From an uncultured Clostridia bacterium (GTDB lineage: Bacteria > Bacillota > Clostridia > TANB77 > CAG-465): a stretch of DNA of 64,000 bases. The stretch spans positions 90,383-154,382 of the forward strand of contig CAKPOO010000001.1 in the NCBI GenBank assembly GCA_934169925.1. Direction: 5' to 3'. Shown one piece after another: positions 20,106 through 25,305 of the stretch. Both the position numbers and the translations under genes were made by a program. The notes beneath the pieces are model-generated. The model was not told where the DNA came from, did no database searches, and saw only the letters and a program-made list of their open reading frames with translations. The first letter of the stretch is position 1. Every line of letters starts with the position of its first letter.

Positions 20106-22403
20106 ATGAAAAATAAAGTAGAATTATTATGTCCTGCGGGAAATATTCAAAGTTTTAAAGCTGCTTGTCAAAATGGAGCAGATGCCATATATATGGGAGT
20201 TGATAGGTTTAATGCAAGAGCAATGGCTAAAAATTTTACTATAAATGAATATGTTGATTGTATTAAATATGCACATATAAGGAATATAAAAGTATATTTA
20301 ACTTTAAATACACTTTTATATGATGAAGAGATAAAGGATGCTTTAGAAGTTGTAAAATCGTTATATGAATGTGGTCTTGATGCTGTAATATTACAAGATT
20401 TAGGACTTGCAACTTTAGTCCATAAAATGTTGCCAGATTTACATTTACATGCAAGTACACAAATGAGTGTGTATTCTTTAGAACAAGTTAAGTATTTAGA
20501 AAAATTAGGATTTAGTAGAGTCGTTCTTGCACGTGAACTTACAGTATCAGAAATTGAGTATATTTGTAAAAATTGTAATGTTGAAATAGAAGTATTTGTA
20601 CATGGTGCTTTATGTGTTTGTGTGTCAGGTCAATGTTATTTAAGTAAATCAATTGGAAATAGAAGTGCAAATAGAGGAAGTTGTGCACAGCCATGTAGAA
20701 TGAAATATTCATTATATAAAAATGGTAAAATAATAGAAAAAGAAAGATATTTATTAAGCAAAAAAGATATTTTTGGAATGGATTATATAGATAAACTTAT
20801 TTTAGCAGGAGTTCATTCTTTAAAATTAGAGGGAAGAAATAAATCTCCTGAATATGTTGCTTGCGTTACTAGTAGTTATAGGAAAAAAATTGATCAAAAA
20901 ATAAATGAACAAGAACAAAATAACATCCAAAATAATTTGTTACAAATGTTTAATAGGGACGGAAAATCTTCTGGTTATTTAGGAGGTGTTAGATATAAAG
21001 ATTCAATAACATTAAATAGTCCAAAAAATACAGGAAAAGTACTTGGTAAAGTTTTAGATAAGAAAAATAAGTTTATAAAAGTAAAATTAATGGAAGATAT
21101 TGATTTACATGATGGATTTGAAATATATTCAGATGGAAATGTTGTATCAAGCATTGTTACTTGTATTAGAGATGATAAATACAAAATTACAAATACTATT
21201 TCGAAAAAAGGTGAATATGTTTGGATTGGTGATATAAACAAAAATGTAAAGATAAATTCTTTAGTTATAAAAACATCAAGTAATAAATTAAATGAAGAAT
21301 ATAGAAAAACTTATGAAAATGATGTGCAAAATATAAAAGAAAATATATATATTGATATTTCTTTTAGAAAAGGCAAGAACGTAAAAATAAAATATTTTTC
21401 AAAAAATAATGAGGTTTTAAAAGATGAGATTTTTTTAGAATATATACCTGATATTGCAAAAAATAAAGCGTTAACAAAGGAAGATGTAGATAATTCATTT
21501 AAAAAGACAATAGATATTCCTTTTAATTTTATACTAGATAATGCAGATATTGAAAATGGTTTGTTTGTTCCAGTATCTATGTTAAATGAAATAAGAAGAA
21601 ATATTTATGCAAGTATTTTATCTAAATTTGAATGTAAGAAAAATATTGATATTAATTATGATAAAGTACTAAAATTTGATGGTATTACTAAAAAAAGAAA
21701 AATAGATTTTAATAATTCATTATTTGTATATAAATATGACAAGGAAAAAACATACAATCTAGAATATGATTTTGATGTGCTTATTATTCAAATTCAAGAT
21801 TATATTAGGTATAGCGAAGATATTATAAACAAATATATAAATAATAATATTAAAATAGCTATAAGTATTCCAAATGTAGTTTTTGATAATGTAAATGAAT
21901 TTATTAATGAAAATATTGAAAAAGTAATAATTGATAATAAAATTTCAGGTGTAATTTTAGGTAGTTTTAGATATTTTGAAAAACTAAAAAAATTAAAAGA
22001 AAAATATAATTTTTATTTAATAGCAGATTATAGTTTTAATGTTACTAACAAGTATTCTGCAATGTTTCTTAAAAATATTGGATTTGATACTATAACACTT
22101 TGTGATGATTCAAGATTAGAAGATTTTGAAAAATATGATAAATTCATAAATGTTGTAATTATTCAAGGATATAAAACAATTATGACATCAAGATATTGTA
22201 TAATAGGAAGCTTTGTTGAAAATAGAAAAGTAGGTAGTGCTTGTAAAAGAAGTTGCATGAAAGAAAGTTTTTATATCGAAGACTTTAAAAATACAAGATA
22301 TGATATAGTATGTGATAGCATAGATTGTGTAATGAGAATAGTTAAAAATGATGACAAAACTAATGATAATAACTTTGGAATAAAAAGAAATTGCATATTA
22401 TAA
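20106..22403 (+). CDS. U32-family peptidase / RlhA-like protein
   Basis: N-terminal U32 domain (ELLCPAGN, GADAIY, ARELT, EVFVHGALC). Long C-terminal extension. Confidence 0.8.
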   Translation: MKNKVELLCPAGNIQSFKAACQNGADAIYMGVDRFNARAMAKNFTINEYVDCIKYAHIRNIKVYLTLNTLLYDEEIKDALEVVKSLYECGLDAVILQDLGLATLVHKMLPDLHLHASTQMSVYSLEQVKYLEKLGFSRVVLARELTVSEIEYICKNCNVEIEVFVHGALCVCVSGQCYLSKSIGNRSANRGSCAQPCRMKYSLYKNGKIIEKERYLLSKKDIFGMDYIDKLILAGVHSLKLEGRNKSPEYVACVTSSYRKKIDQKINEQEQNNIQNNLLQMFNRDGKSSGYLGGVRYKDSITLNSPKNTGKVLGKVLDKKNKFIKVKLMEDIDLHDGFEIYSDGNVVSSIVTCIRDDKYKITNTISKKGEYVWIGDINKNVKINSLVIKTSSNKLNEEYRKTYENDVQNIKENIYIDISFRKGKNVKIKYFSKNNEVLKDEIFLEYIPDIAKNKALTKEDVDNSFKKTIDIPFNFILDNADIENGLFVPVSMLNEIRRNIYASILSKFECKKNIDINYDKVLKFDGITKKRKIDFNNSLFVYKYDKEKTYNLEYDFDVLIIQIQDYIRYSEDIINKYINNNIKIAISIPNVVFDNVNEFINENIEKVIIDNKISGVILGSFRYFEKLKKLKEKYNFYLIADYSFNVTNKYSAMFLKNIGFDTITLCDDSRLEDFEKYDKFINVVIIQGYKTIMTSRYCIIGSFVENRKVGSACKRSCMKESFYIEDFKNTRYDIVCDSIDCVMRIVKNDDKTNDNNFGIKRNCIL

Positions 22404-22437
22404 AAATAAAAAATAAGTAATTAATTAATATAAAGTA

Positions 22438-22466
22438 TTGACAATCTTTTTTTTATATGGTAAGAT
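22438..22466 (+). promoter_or_regulatory. promoter of tRNA-Leu
   Basis: TTGACA, 17-nt spacer, TAAGAT, about 12 nt before the tRNA 5' end. Confidence 0.6.
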
Positions 22467-22478
22467 TAATATGCAGTT

Positions 22479-22563
22479 GCGGGTATGGCGGAATTGGCAG
22501 ACGCGCCGGACTTAGAATCCGGTGTCTAGCGACGTGAAGGTTCAAGTCCTTTTACCCGCACCA
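22479..22563 (+). tRNA. tRNA-Leu (anticodon UAG), class II with long variable arm, CCA encoded
   Basis: Acceptor GCGGGTA/TACCCGC. Anticodon stem CCGGA/TCCGG with loop CTTAGAA. T-arm GAAGG-TTCAAGT-CCTTT. 3' ACCA. Confidence 0.93.
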
Positions 22564-22601
22564 AAAAAGATCAATCAGAATTATTTCTGGTTGATTTTTT
22601 T
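22561..22601 (+). repeat. direct repeat copy 1: tRNA CCA end plus rho-independent terminator hairpin
   Basis: CCAAAAAAG then ATCAATCAGAA-TTAT-TTCTGGTTGAT-TTTTTT. The 32-nt core 22570-22601 is identical to 23335-23366. Confidence 0.9.
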
Positions 22602-22737
22602 GTCTAAGGACAATATTAAAATATTGAATGTTGTGAAGATTTATGGTAAAATATTTACATAATTTAATTATCTTGCAATTATGCAAGTTTTAAATATAGT
22701 AACTTTTAACAATGATTATTGTAAAGGAGGAAGAACA

Positions 22738-22953
22738 ATGTATGTAAGTTTACCGTATAAGATTGGTACAATTTTGAAAACAGTAGAATCTGACAAAGTA
22801 CAATATGATAAAGTACATCATTATATTGTAGGAGAAAAAATTCAAGTTGTATTAGAATTGTGCTATGATACAAAACCAAGATTATCTGTTCCTATTGACA
22901 TTAAAAGATTGAAGAGAAAGTGGACTATTTGTGACAGCAAAAGTGAAATTTAA
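22738..22953 (+). CDS. hypothetical small protein (71 aa)
   Basis: AAAGGAGG RBS 6 nt before ATG 22738. First gene of the cassette flanked by the duplicated terminator. Confidence 0.6.
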   Translation: MYVSLPYKIGTILKTVESDKVQYDKVHHYIVGEKIQVVLELCYDTKPRLSVPIDIKRLKRKWTICDSKSEI

Positions 22954-22973
22954 GATTTATTAAGGAGGAAAAT

Positions 22974-23315
22974 ATGGAAATAGTAACTATCAAACGGTCA
23001 GAAAAAGACCAAAAGCAGCAAATAATTGAACTGTTAAAAGAGAATAATAGTCGTATTATAGTTATGATGAGTAAAGCGTGGTTCTCTGATTTTAAAATCC
23101 GTGCAGATGTGAGGCGAGATATGTATGAATATACTATTGATCAGCCCGATGAAATTATATATGAGATTTATGAAAATGAAAGAACACTTGTATGCAAATT
23201 CTATGGAAGAATGAAATTTCAACTTATTGGAGGACTATATTTTTTAGAAACTTGTGATTTTTTAAAGTATGAATCAAGTGGTGATGAAGCAAGTAAGATT
23301 ATTTTTCTTGAGTAG
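22974..23315 (+). CDS. hypothetical protein (113 aa)
   Basis: AAGGAGG RBS. Contains codons rare in the neighbours (CGG, CGT, GCG, CCC). Followed by the second copy of the terminator. Confidence 0.65.
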   Translation: MEIVTIKRSEKDQKQQIIELLKENNSRIIVMMSKAWFSDFKIRADVRRDMYEYTIDQPDEIIYEIYENERTLVCKFYGRMKFQLIGGLYFLETCDFLKYESSGDEASKIIFLE

Positions 23316-23328
23316 TTATTAAAATATT

Positions 23329-23366
23329 CCAAAAATCAATCAGAATTATTTCTGGTTGATTTTTTT
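23329..23366 (+). repeat. direct repeat copy 2: CCA-A5 plus the same terminator hairpin
   Basis: CCAAAAATCAATCAGAATTATTTCTGGTTGATTTTTT lies immediately after the 22974-23315 ORF. Confidence 0.9.
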
Positions 23367-23755
23367 AGTAATAAGGTAGAGATTTAGAAATTTTGTAGAA
23401 TATTTTTCTTAAAATTATATAGAGAAGAACTATTAGAACGATATATAAATTATGAAGCAGCAATGTATGTAATTGTAAATTATTGCAGAAATTTAGTTGT
23501 GCAATATGATAAATTATTAGATAATAAAATCTTATCAATGCAAAGAATGAAGAAAATATATACTTGCATTGTTAAACGAGATAATAAAATGCATGAAAAA
23601 AATGCTAGTTATTACTCTGAAAAAATGAAGATAACAAGATAAAATATTAAAAAGTTTTATATTAACTTATCGTTATATCTATTTTTATTGAAAATTTTGT
23701 AAAGTTTAGTGTAAAATGTAAGTGTTAGATTTTTAAATAAAAATGGAGGCATAGA

Positions 23756-24034
23756 ATGGGAATAGAAAACAGAAAAAGAAATATTGAAAAAAGTGATTTA
23801 GAATCATTTTCTGAGATGAGATGGGATGATAAAAAAGATAATAGTACTAAAAAAATTACTATGGAAGATTTGGATGATATAAAAGATTTATTAATAAATG
23901 AACCTTATTTTTCAGAATTAGAAGTAGCAAAAGCTACAAAGGATGTTAAATTTGAAGAAAAACAAGAAGCTCAAAAATATGATGAAAAAATGATTGATGA
24001 GTGGTTAGATAAATTAGATGATTTAATTAAATAG
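23756..24034 (+). CDS. hypothetical acidic small protein
   Basis: ATGGAGG RBS. Separated from the next ORF by an 11-nt gap. Confidence 0.55.
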   Translation: MGIENRKRNIEKSDLESFSEMRWDDKKDNSTKKITMEDLDDIKDLLINEPYFSELEVAKATKDVKFEEKQEAQKYDEKMIDEWLDKLDDLIK

Positions 24035-24045
24035 AGGTAAAATTA

Positions 24046-24495
24046 ATGGAAGAAACATATGAAAAAGCATATACAGAAGTTGTAGAATTATTAAAGTATT
24101 TTAAAAAGGAATCTGTAGAAAAAATACCAAAAGAAAAATTAGATTTATATATGAGTAAAAAAGATAAATCATATAACTATAAAGTTGATACAAGTAAGTC
24201 TTTTGAAGAACAAAAAATGTCAGATAAAACTAAAGCAATATTTGCTAATATATATAGGGATTATTGGGCAAATGATTACCAAAGAGAAAAGATAAAACAA
24301 AAGGAAGAAAAAGAGAAAAAATATTTAGAAAATTTAGAAAGTTCAATGAAGATAGATTGTAATTTTGATGATATTTTTAATAATAAGGTAAAAGAAAGTA
24401 ATAAAGATGATAAAAATAGTATTGTTGTTTTAGATAATAAAAAAGGTTTCTTTGGAAGATTATTTGAAAATATAAGAAAAATTTTTAGTAAATAA
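24046..24495 (+). CDS. hypothetical protein
   Basis: The N-terminal half (YEKAYTEVVELLKYF..IPKEKLDLY...YRDYWAN) resembles a small-protein family I recall from Firmicutes. This is recollection only. Confidence 0.55.
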   Translation: MEETYEKAYTEVVELLKYFKKESVEKIPKEKLDLYMSKKDKSYNYKVDTSKSFEEQKMSDKTKAIFANIYRDYWANDYQREKIKQKEEKEKKYLENLESSMKIDCNFDDIFNNKVKESNKDDKNSIVVLDNKKGFFGRLFENIRKIFSK

Positions 24496-24608
24496 GTATT
24501 ATATTATGTAAATTAAGCTTTTTAATTGACATATTAATAAAAAATTGGTATAATCTACATGTTACTATATTTTGATTTTTTATATAATTATAACGTAGGA
24601 GGTCTGTG

Positions 24609-25253
24609 ATGAATGAATTTTTAAATGAAAAAATTGTCATCATGGACATTGATGGCACATTTTTTAGAGATTACAAAAAAGTATACAAACGGATAATAGG
24701 TGAAATATTTGGTAAAAATAAAGCAGTTATTTTTATTAACAATTTTTTGTATAAAATTAATGATTTAGATATATTTTCAAATACTATGTTTTTATTTAAA
24801 TGTGTAATATTATTTTATTCTATAATTTCATTTTCAAGTTATAGAAAAAACATAATTAAATTTGAGAAAAAATATGTAAATTATGCAAAAAAGAGTATTG
24901 AGTTAGAATATGACAGAATAATTAAACCAATAGAGCAAAAAGGATACAAAGTTCTTTTTATTTCACAAGATATTTTTACAGAAAAATTAAAAAAATATGT
25001 AAAAAATCCAATTATTATTCCAAAAAGTAAACTTGTTTTTGTTATCAATAATTTTTTGTACATGGATGTGATATTTTCTGTAGGTAATAACTATTTTGAT
25101 GATATTTTACCGGCAAAAATTTTAAATTTTAATAGTAAAAAAGTAAAAGTAGTTCCTGTATATATAGGAAATAGTAGGCTTGCAATTAAAATATCTGGTA
25201 AAAATACTTTAAAATTTACTGATATAAGAGATTTTATCACTAAACATTTTTAA
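24609..25253 (+). CDS. HAD-superfamily-like hydrolase
   Basis: DxDGT motif I (MDIDGTFF) near the N-terminus and a late GNNYFDD motif. TTGACA-17-TATAAT promoter and AGGAGG RBS. Confidence 0.5.
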   Translation: MNEFLNEKIVIMDIDGTFFRDYKKVYKRIIGEIFGKNKAVIFINNFLYKINDLDIFSNTMFLFKCVILFYSIISFSSYRKNIIKFEKKYVNYAKKSIELEYDRIIKPIEQKGYKVLFISQDIFTEKLKKYVKNPIIIPKSKLVFVINNFLYMDVIFSVGNNYFDDILPAKILNFNSKKVKVVPVYIGNSRLAIKISGKNTLKFTDIRDFITKHF

Positions 25254-25290
25254 GAAGCACTTTTTAGTGCTTCTTTTATTTTTATAAAAA

Positions 25291-25305
25291 ACAAACTTTT
25301 GTTTG
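25291..25305 (+). promoter_or_regulatory. candidate LexA operator (Cheo-box variant)
   Basis: The palindrome CAAAC-TTTT-GTTTG (AAC-N4-GTT core) overlaps the -35 of the lexA promoter. Confidence 0.5.

Follow-up and report, generated by a model that had tools for sequence, protein, structure and literature searches.

A small two-gene cassette behind the tRNA-Leu(UAG) gene of an uncultured Clostridia bacterium (assembly GCA_934169925.1; host genome of 1.23 Mb, 25% GC) appears to be the remainder of a mobile element. The stretch of DNA analyzed here, referred to below as the window, comprises 64,000 nucleotides of contig CAKPOO010000001.1, and the cassette occupies positions 22564-23366. With a probability of roughly 0.62, it represents a decayed islet, devoid of recombinase and relaxase genes and similar to a cis-mobilizable element (CIME), of a family of small Tn4451-like integrative mobilizable elements (IMEs) that use a serine recombinase and target tRNA ends. 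CIMEs are decayed IMEs or integrative conjugative elements (ICEs) that have retained their attachment (att) sites and often occur in tandem accretion at a single att site (PMC5704250). Most likely, this is no new system but a known type of element in a decayed state. The data that carry this reading are the repeat that bounds the cassette, the association of the element family with tRNA genes, the homology of both cassette ends to parts of the family, and a sister deletion remnant in the same genome. The relatives of the host are metagenome-assembled genomes (MAGs) of uncultured human-gut Clostridia and Clostridium sp. CAG:440.

A repeated hairpin bounds the cassette

The features of the tRNA gene and the cassette are as follows.

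22479-22563, + strand: tRNA-Leu(UAG) with encoded CCA at 22561-22563, putative insertion target (ARAGORN; Rfam tRNA, 60.9 bits)
22561-22601, + strand: repeat copy 1, CCA + AAAAAG + hairpin + T7
22602-22621, + strand: GTCTAAGGACAATATTAAAAT, with homology to GTTGTCTAAAAACAATATTAAAAT..., the left end of the islets
22624-22652, + strand: cassette promoter, TTGAAT-17-TAAAAT, extended -10 with TG
22653-22737, + strand: conserved leader of 85 nt, with the palindrome CTTGCAATTATGCAAG at 22672-22687 and the strong Shine-Dalgarno sequence AAAGGAGG at 22724-22731
22738-22953, + strand: ORF1, 71 aa, with the Shine-Dalgarno sequence AAAGGAGG upstream; first and conserved gene of a cargo module, followed by varying partners
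22974-23315, + strand: ORF2, 113 aa; small orphan family, atypical codon usage
23329-23366, + strand: repeat copy 2, CCA (23329-23331) + AAA + identical hairpin + T7

In copy 1, the hairpin is formed by the stem ATCAATCAGA/TCTGGTTGAT and the loop ATTATT. Within the window, there are exactly two copies of the 32-mer ATCAATCAGAATTATTTCTGGTTGATTTTTTT (22570-22601 and 23335-23366); no further copy was found with up to 3 mismatches, and 100 shuffles yielded 0 matches. An initial annotation of this DNA had described a duplicated CCA-plus-terminator repeat with an identical 32-nt core that brackets two small ORFs (71 and 113 aa), with no integrase or other mobility gene. Each of these points holds, the last one for the 765 bp concerned, and both ORFs are under purifying selection (dN/dS against homologues of 0.08-0.28 for ORF1 and 0.23 for ORF2). 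The same annotation had compared the repeats with an attL/attR footprint. The tRNA 3' end indeed appears to be an integration site. However, as CCA is all that the repeat has in common with the tRNA, it is no duplicate of the 3' part of the gene but a terminator module that belongs to the element family.

Outside the 32-mer, a gap of 3 nt is needed to align the CCA and A-run segments of the two copies, and past the T-run nothing but TAAGG is common to both flanks. Folding gave -18.6 kcal/mol (z -6.6) for copy 1 and -16.2 kcal/mol (z -7.3) for copy 2. With a stable hairpin followed directly by T7, both qualify as intrinsic (Rho-independent) terminators; a simple terminator scan did not list them. 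Copy 1 is predicted to act as the terminator of tRNA-Leu, and it matches the left-end module of the islet family.

ORF1 and ORF2 are the only genes in 22564-23366, where no recombinase or relaxase gene is present, and no large serine recombinase (LSR) gene was found in 22400-25300 either. There is also no tyrosine integrase gene near the locus, the five Phage_integrase matches of the genome being located on other contigs or ~74 kb away. A search of Rfam over 22300-23800 returned the tRNA as the sole match.

Complete relatives carry a serine recombinase at tRNA ends

Sequences that match 22566-22622, i.e., the hairpin and the flank next to it, were found at several loci (L029, L034, L039, L042, and L050). 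In complete elements, GTTGTCTAAAAACAATATTAAAAT... stands before a gene of ~90 aa, designated here the MKIIK gene after its N-terminal residues, and the recombinase gene. The latter encodes an LSR with Resolvase, Recombinase, and Zn-ribbon domains (L074), with 612-650 aa in full-length copies. Of the 50 genus genomes, 14 contain this LSR family, which reaches 5 copies in a single genome. At 16 of 25 LSR loci, a tRNA gene (Gln, Leu-UAA, Leu-CAA, Thr-UGU, Thr-CGU, Gly, or Asn) precedes the LSR gene in the same orientation at a distance of 0.5-0.7 kb; at other loci, the same LSR is found next to tmRNA. Complete elements are positioned directly after the CCA of at least 9 tRNA species and of tmRNA.

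An intact element of genome G050 (L119) follows tRNA-Leu(UAA) and consists of the trailer, a 94-aa gene, an LSR of 632 aa, Mob_Pre, and genes for a 101-aa protein, TnpV, and a 96-aa protein, in which Pfam recognized Resolvase + Recombinase, Mob_Pre, and TnpV. The Mob_Pre relaxase and TnpV are carried by L119, L046, and L120, and the window cassette has neither.

The other side of the cassette also has its counterpart in the family. ORF1 homologues are located downstream of LSR and Mob_Pre in the metagenome contigs L045, L046, and L048. In ORF1-bearing contigs, the ORF1 module is followed by a unit of ~75 nt with its own promoter, whose conservation ends exactly at ...GGCACCA and beyond which another trailer module or unrelated sequence begins. 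At both types of junction, family conservation ends exactly at CCA, as would be compatible with a short recombination core. Fuller relatives are present at the same tRNA species, tRNA-Leu(UAG) (L053 and L088), and in L088, from another species, this tRNA is followed by the trailer, a decayed MKIIK gene, the same leader, ORF1, and a partner of 182 aa. Because of the homology of GTCTAAGGACAATATTAAAAT, the homology of the ORF1 module, and the layout of L088, the window can be read as the left end of the family fused straight to its right-hand cargo.

Some further features of these relatives were recorded. The ~75-nt unit (L048:3302-3410, L049:777-885, L046:3572-3680, and L053:4231-4340) has the promoter TTGCAA-16-TATACT with TG, a palindrome, TTGATTGATATTTGTATCAATC, and a 3' part, GTTGTAGATAACTAC...GGCACCA, that is like a tRNA acceptor end. 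It had no match in Rfam and showed no covariation past one invariant palindrome (alignment A3), and a structured RNA is not claimed; the P arm of attP and a small RNA are possible identities. The unit is absent from the genome of the window. In L038, the MKIIK gene has contributed its N-terminal codons to fusions with unrelated genes. Genes that by eye only resemble DinD, KilA-N, and Bro-N lie beside tRNA-end islets (L088:1678-4318, L028, L034, and L054), which hints at a phage or satellite ancestry of part of the cargo.

A sister remnant in the host genome

A deletion of the kind proposed for the window is documented elsewhere in the same genome. The segment C4:135918-136550, behind tRNA-Arg(ACG), corresponds to the G050 element minus an internal 4.66 kb that held the LSR, Mob_Pre, and TnpV genes, with flanks that are 92.8% and 98.1% identical to those of the G050 element. 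The tRNA-Arg(ACG) locus (C4:135846-136550) has retained a variant of the trailer, a truncated MKIIK gene, and a 71-aa ORF. No cognate LSR is present in the host genome, which has one LSR at 27% identity on another contig.

The hairpin as a family signature behind tRNAs

The 10-bp stem of the repeat, with another loop, also follows tRNA-Arg(UCU) in the host genome, and close variants follow tRNA-Arg(CCU) and tRNA-Tyr. The exact stem was found in 25 copies in 12 of the 50 genus genomes, of which 18 are located on the same strand within 80 nt after a tRNA or tmRNA; a CCA precedes the hairpin by 3-45 nt in 24 of the 25, most at 41-45 nt. The usual context is a module of ~90 nt from CCA on, comprising a first hairpin (GTATCTGTTCGAAC...GAACAGA), the repeat hairpin with its T-run, and GTTGTCTAAAAACAATATTAAAATCATCC, after which the MKIIK gene begins. 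Module copies inside one genome are near-identical, many of them at contig ends, and they behave like a repeated mobile sequence. According to the initial annotation, a common terminator found at many loci would speak against an integrated cassette. This applies in part, since the stem stands behind four tRNAs of the host and behind many tRNAs in the genus, but this distribution is itself the footprint of the element family.

A second type of trailer, TAAGRTAAAATCGTCGCACCAATGTGACG with another hairpin and T-run, was observed after tRNA-Gly(UCC) of the host at a contig end (G000:C2:213859-214003) and after tRNA-Thr(UGU) in G052 (L120:925-1080), where a 90-aa gene, a 612-aa LSR, and TnpV follow. 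Within it, CACCAATG resembles the junction of CACCA with ATGACG in the first type and may be a true recombination core.

Promoter, leader, and neighborhood of the cassette

Homology to the ORF1 modules of other species begins at the -35 element (22618-22622) and stops at the ORF1 stop codon. The leader recurs elsewhere: in G004 it stands upstream of unrelated genes, in G311 and P0036 upstream of ORF2 homologues. Its stem CTTGC/GCAAG does not vary among leader copies taken from two families in the order. The simple scan flagged one terminator-like site only, which is formed by the palindrome CTTGCAATTATGCAAG and the adjoining TTTTAAAT (22672-22696). The palindrome could serve as an operator or attenuator; folding of the leader was no better than that of shuffles (z -1.8). 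At the other end, homology to the ORF2 module of G311 stops between CCAAAA and the hairpin, at the hairpin start.

Two additional features lie outside the cassette.

22438-22466, + strand: promoter-like site of tRNA-Leu, TTGACA-17-TAAGAT with TG
24046-24495, + strand: 149-aa gene of a multi-copy, islet-associated family

The family of the 149-aa protein occurs in 30 of the 50 genus genomes, with several copies each and often at contig ends or in LSR islets. A paralogue with 36% identity is present on contig C13 of the host, and no Pfam family was matched. This gene suggests that accessory DNA continues past copy 2, perhaps as a second, older remnant.

The order of genes around the cassette is U32 peptidase, tRNA-Leu(UAG), and lexA. 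Because the order of tRNA-Leu(UAG) and lexA varies within the genus, no orthologous empty locus can be defined, and synteny was discarded as a guide to the ancestral state. The GC content of the cassette (25-30%, flanks 17-25%) was likewise rejected as a sign of foreign origin, being just mildly above the flanks and close to that of lexA.

ORF1 and ORF2

The family of ORF1 is narrow, with 34 clusters at 90% identity, and was found in 2 of the 50 genus genomes and in 11 species of a species-level collection. The predicted structure (pLDDT 80) is a small SH3/Tudor-like beta-barrel. A Foldseek search of this fold returned nothing at E <=0.001, and in VIA-align the top Z was 6.7 (CarD, the UvrD Tudor domain, VapX, and R67 DHFR), with no neighbor above noise; as the fold is a generic small beta-barrel, no function was derived from it. 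Across loci, ORF1 is followed by at least 8 unrelated genes, whose products include a 189-aa LRV/HEAT protein, proteins of 89, 117, 167, 182, and 112 aa, and a 77-aa Zn-ribbon protein. In one lineage among human-gut metagenome contigs (L060-L067), a frame change has shortened the ORF1 homologue to 52 aa; because the 77-aa Zn-ribbon gene is intact there, ORF1 may be dispensable for this partner.

The ORF2 family comprises 26 clusters at 50% identity among 1.84 billion proteins. It is present in 5 of 401 genomes of the order, the other four of which belong to a different family. In G311 and P0036, the ORF2 homologue stands directly behind the leader without ORF1, and in G311 it is near a Mob_Pre relaxase gene. 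The predicted structure of ORF2 (pLDDT 43.6) was unusable. With regard to codon usage, 12 of the 113 codons of ORF2 (10.6%) are rare-class for the genome (CGG, CGT twice, GCG, CCC, CGA, CTG, and others), which corresponds to about the 94.5th percentile, and the GC content at third codon positions (GC3) is 0.23. ORF1 has an ordinary content of rare codons and stands out in GC3 only (0.20, genome-wide 0.108). The unusual codons attributed to both genes by the initial annotation are therefore confirmed for ORF2 and not for ORF1. The structure and profile comparison that it recommended yielded the barrel model of ORF1, but profile searches against the PDB gave no match for either protein.

Neither protein matched Pfam, PHROGs, PADLOC, or NCBIfam, and hence neither belongs to a toxin-antitoxin (TA) or defense family known to these resources. 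No relative of ORF1 was confirmed among the IMG/VR viral contigs, and neither protein was matched in the phage collection; a viral origin was dismissed on these grounds, the "viral" neighbors in a protein atlas (scores <0.9) being leads only. A plasmid origin was also set aside, as the cassette DNA matched no plasmid record. With a promoter and terminator of their own and dN/dS well below 1, ORF1 and ORF2 can be regarded as accessory cargo that is expressed, and their role probably lies in the conflict between mobile elements and the host. Because the partners of ORF1 vary and ORF2 stands alone behind the leader, the two appear to be independent cargo modules and no obligate pair.

Proposed history of the cassette

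Complete members of the family in this genus comprise, starting at the CCA of a tRNA or tmRNA, a trailer that usually has two hairpins, the ~90-aa gene, LSR, Mob_Pre, and TnpV with small ORFs. Their right end is formed by the cargo, which has a promoter, the leader, ORF1, and a second gene that varies, and by the ~75-nt unit that runs to ...GGCACCA. The second hairpin of the trailer and its T-run correspond to the repeat of the window and would re-terminate the tRNA. From such an element, the window would have retained three parts, i.e., the left-end hairpin with ~20 nt of flank, the cargo module with ORF1 and ORF2, and the second hairpin after CCA. We infer that a serine recombinase integrated the element at the CCA and that deletion later removed its mobility genes. 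Copy 2 would then be either a displaced earlier trailer or, because an islet-type 149-aa gene lies downstream, possibly the left end of an older adjoining tandem remnant (accretion). The cassette would now be fixed, or cis-mobilizable at best. On this history, the CCA of the tRNA would be followed at an empty site by a short A-run, a single hairpin, T7, and AGTAATAAGG, while excision would give a circular joint of the form ...TATTCCAAA-hairpin-T7-GTCTAAGG....

The reading as a decayed islet is favored because the window has no recombinase or relaxase gene and the sister remnant lost its LSR by deletion. It is also in line with the sparse distribution of both genes in the genus and order and with the codon usage of ORF2. 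An integrase-less remnant was among three options offered by the initial annotation and is the best of them, given the complete LSR relatives at tRNA CCA ends, including that of tRNA-Leu(UAG). The recombinase of the family, however, is an LSR and not a classic tyrosine integrase.

Several points weigh against this reading. The comparison set consists of other species only, so that neither an empty site nor an excision event is in evidence. The core at which LSRs exchange strands measures 2 bp, and a direct repeat of ~40 nt does not result from their action alone. An extra assumption is needed to account for two identical hairpins, which may stem from tandem accretion, from gene conversion, or from a module already present at the target. 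The canonical first hairpin, the MKIIK gene, and the ...GGCACCA unit are missing from the window, whose connection with the family would consist of ~55 nt at the left end, the cargo module, and analogy. Moreover, the CCA ahead of copy 2 recurs as CCCATAAAA in the 3' flank of ORF2 in G311; because this flank adjoins no tRNA, the CCA of copy 2 may be coincidental and no att remnant.

Alternative explanations

Among the alternatives, the one that deserves most attention, although it is unlikely, is that no element ever integrated here and that a module of promoter, ORF1, and ORF2 reached the site by recombination, either homologous or microhomology-mediated, anchored in the hairpin, the CCAAAA run, and the leader, i.e., terminator capture or module shuffling. 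The mosaic structure of the modules fits this idea well: homology sets in exactly at the -35 element and ends with ORF1, one leader precedes different genes, homology to the ORF2 module of G311 stops where the hairpin starts, and MKIIK codons have been fused to unrelated genes in L038. It explains less readily why the ~55 nt of the left end (hairpin and GTCTAAGGACAATATTAAAAT) are the family's own left end, placed directly at the tRNA CCA, or why a fuller layout exists at the same tRNA in L088 and a proven deletion remnant in the same genome. Slightly less probable again is a more far-reaching proposal, in which the hairpin-bounded cassette would still be a functional cis-mobilizable unit of an under-described family (serine-recombinase IMEs at tRNA/tmRNA CCA ends with their own replacement terminator and a ...GGCACCA end), and ORF1 with its swappable gene would constitute a new modular two-gene accessory system that acts, for example, on transcription or on competing mobile elements. 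A related and improbable variant regards the cassette as a mini-element, CIME- or satellite-like, that is still active and is excised and integrated via the two hairpin sites by a recombinase supplied in trans. The sites are 100% identical including the loop, both ORFs and the promoter are intact, and mobilization of CIMEs by accretion is known for other IME/ICE families (PMC5704250) and was proposed for Dehalococcoides ssrA islands (PMC3146451). However, the genome has no cognate recombinase and the window no canonical right-end unit, the searches of viral, phage, and plasmid collections described above were negative, and no ORF1/ORF2 locus examined in genomes and metagenome contigs has the same cassette between the same two sites.

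A dedicated two-component function of ORF1 and ORF2, e.g., as a TA or immunity pair of whatever origin, is more doubtful still. Two small co-directional genes 20 nt apart behind one promoter would suit such a pair, and the VapX antitoxin is among the best structural neighbors of ORF1, but with a Z of 6.2 that is in the noise range. This suggestion of the initial annotation is contradicted by the many unrelated partners of ORF1, by the ORF2 homologues that lack ORF1 behind the leader, and by the empty searches for known TA and defense families. Least probable of all is a tyrosine-integrase island whose attL and attR are preserved as the repeats and whose integrase has since been lost. tRNA 3' ends are the usual target of tyrosine integrases (PMC5704250), and an N-terminal fragment that looks like a tyrosine integrase by eye, not confirmed by Pfam, is present in the related islet L050; on the other hand, repeat and tRNA share nothing beyond CCA, and the recurrent recombinase of the family is of the serine type.

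Other systems were discarded on structural grounds. Integron cassettes are promoterless ORFs closed by attC (RYYYAAC...GTTRRRY) and arrayed beside intI, whereas the present cassette has its own promoter, a hairpin without integron core sites, and no intI nearby. The hairpin was also considered as part of a group II intron or of an IS200/IS605 element; with no reverse transcriptase, no TnpA, and an LSR as the recurrent enzyme, both ideas were rejected.

Relationship to known elements

Tn4451 and Tn4453 encode the LSR TnpX, the Mob/Pre relaxase TnpZ, and TnpV, and the 2-bp core in Tn4451 is GA. Complete relatives, such as L119 of G050, carry the same triad according to Pfam and have a similar size (~3-6 kb), whereas the window cassette has none of the three genes. 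The likeness to Tn4451 lies in this gene triad. The LSR of the family is <=29% identical to the LSRs of the plasmid collection. Unlike Tn4451/Tn4453, the present family is located at tRNA/tmRNA CCA ends, brings a replacement terminator, and has no resistance gene.

As in CIMEs, the cassette lies at the specific insertion site of its family, is bounded by end sequences of the family, and is adjoined by a probable second remnant. CIMEs have, however, been defined largely on tyrosine-recombinase elements with true att duplications, whereas a serine recombinase is involved here and the repeat is a terminator module. The CIME-like status of the cassette would rest on its site, its ends, and the loss of recombinase and transfer genes, all judged from sequence.

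The islands at ssrA in Dehalococcoides are likewise serine-recombinase islands at a tRNA-like gene; they have a DsiB/CcrB-like recombinase and enter ssrA within its T-loop, with a 20-bp duplication (PMC3146451). They also form tandem arrays with short repeats of the gene 3' end between units, and some units without an integration module have been read as cis-mobilizable (PMC3146451). They differ in that the recombinase gene overlaps attL and reads towards ssrA, in their size of 10-30 kb, and in their single target. The family described here joins its target at or behind the CCA and accepts many tRNAs, with a recombinase gene placed 0.5-0.7 kb inside the element and pointing away from the tRNA. 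With tyrosine-integrase islands at tRNA genes (P4-like and NBU-like IMEs), the family shares the tRNA 3' end as a hotspot and a tRNA that is intact afterwards, but its recurrent genes include no tyrosine integrase and no part of the tRNA 3' end (15 nt or more) is duplicated.

Implications

At the level of this locus, the finding is mainly a clarification, in that an apparent att duplication without integrase is probably the decayed end product of a mobile element. The family itself is under-described in the literature. A review of IMEs assigned tRNA 3' ends to tyrosine recombinases only (PMC5704250), and the family adds a well-documented case of a pattern that is missing from that account, i.e., serine-recombinase IMEs at the CCA end of many tRNAs and of tmRNA. 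The pattern is relevant to the annotation of MAGs, in which such sites break assemblies, and to the mining of LSRs with natural targets at tRNA ends. In the small-genome gut Clostridia, these elements make tRNA trailers hypervariable cassette sites and spread a common terminator behind unrelated tRNAs.

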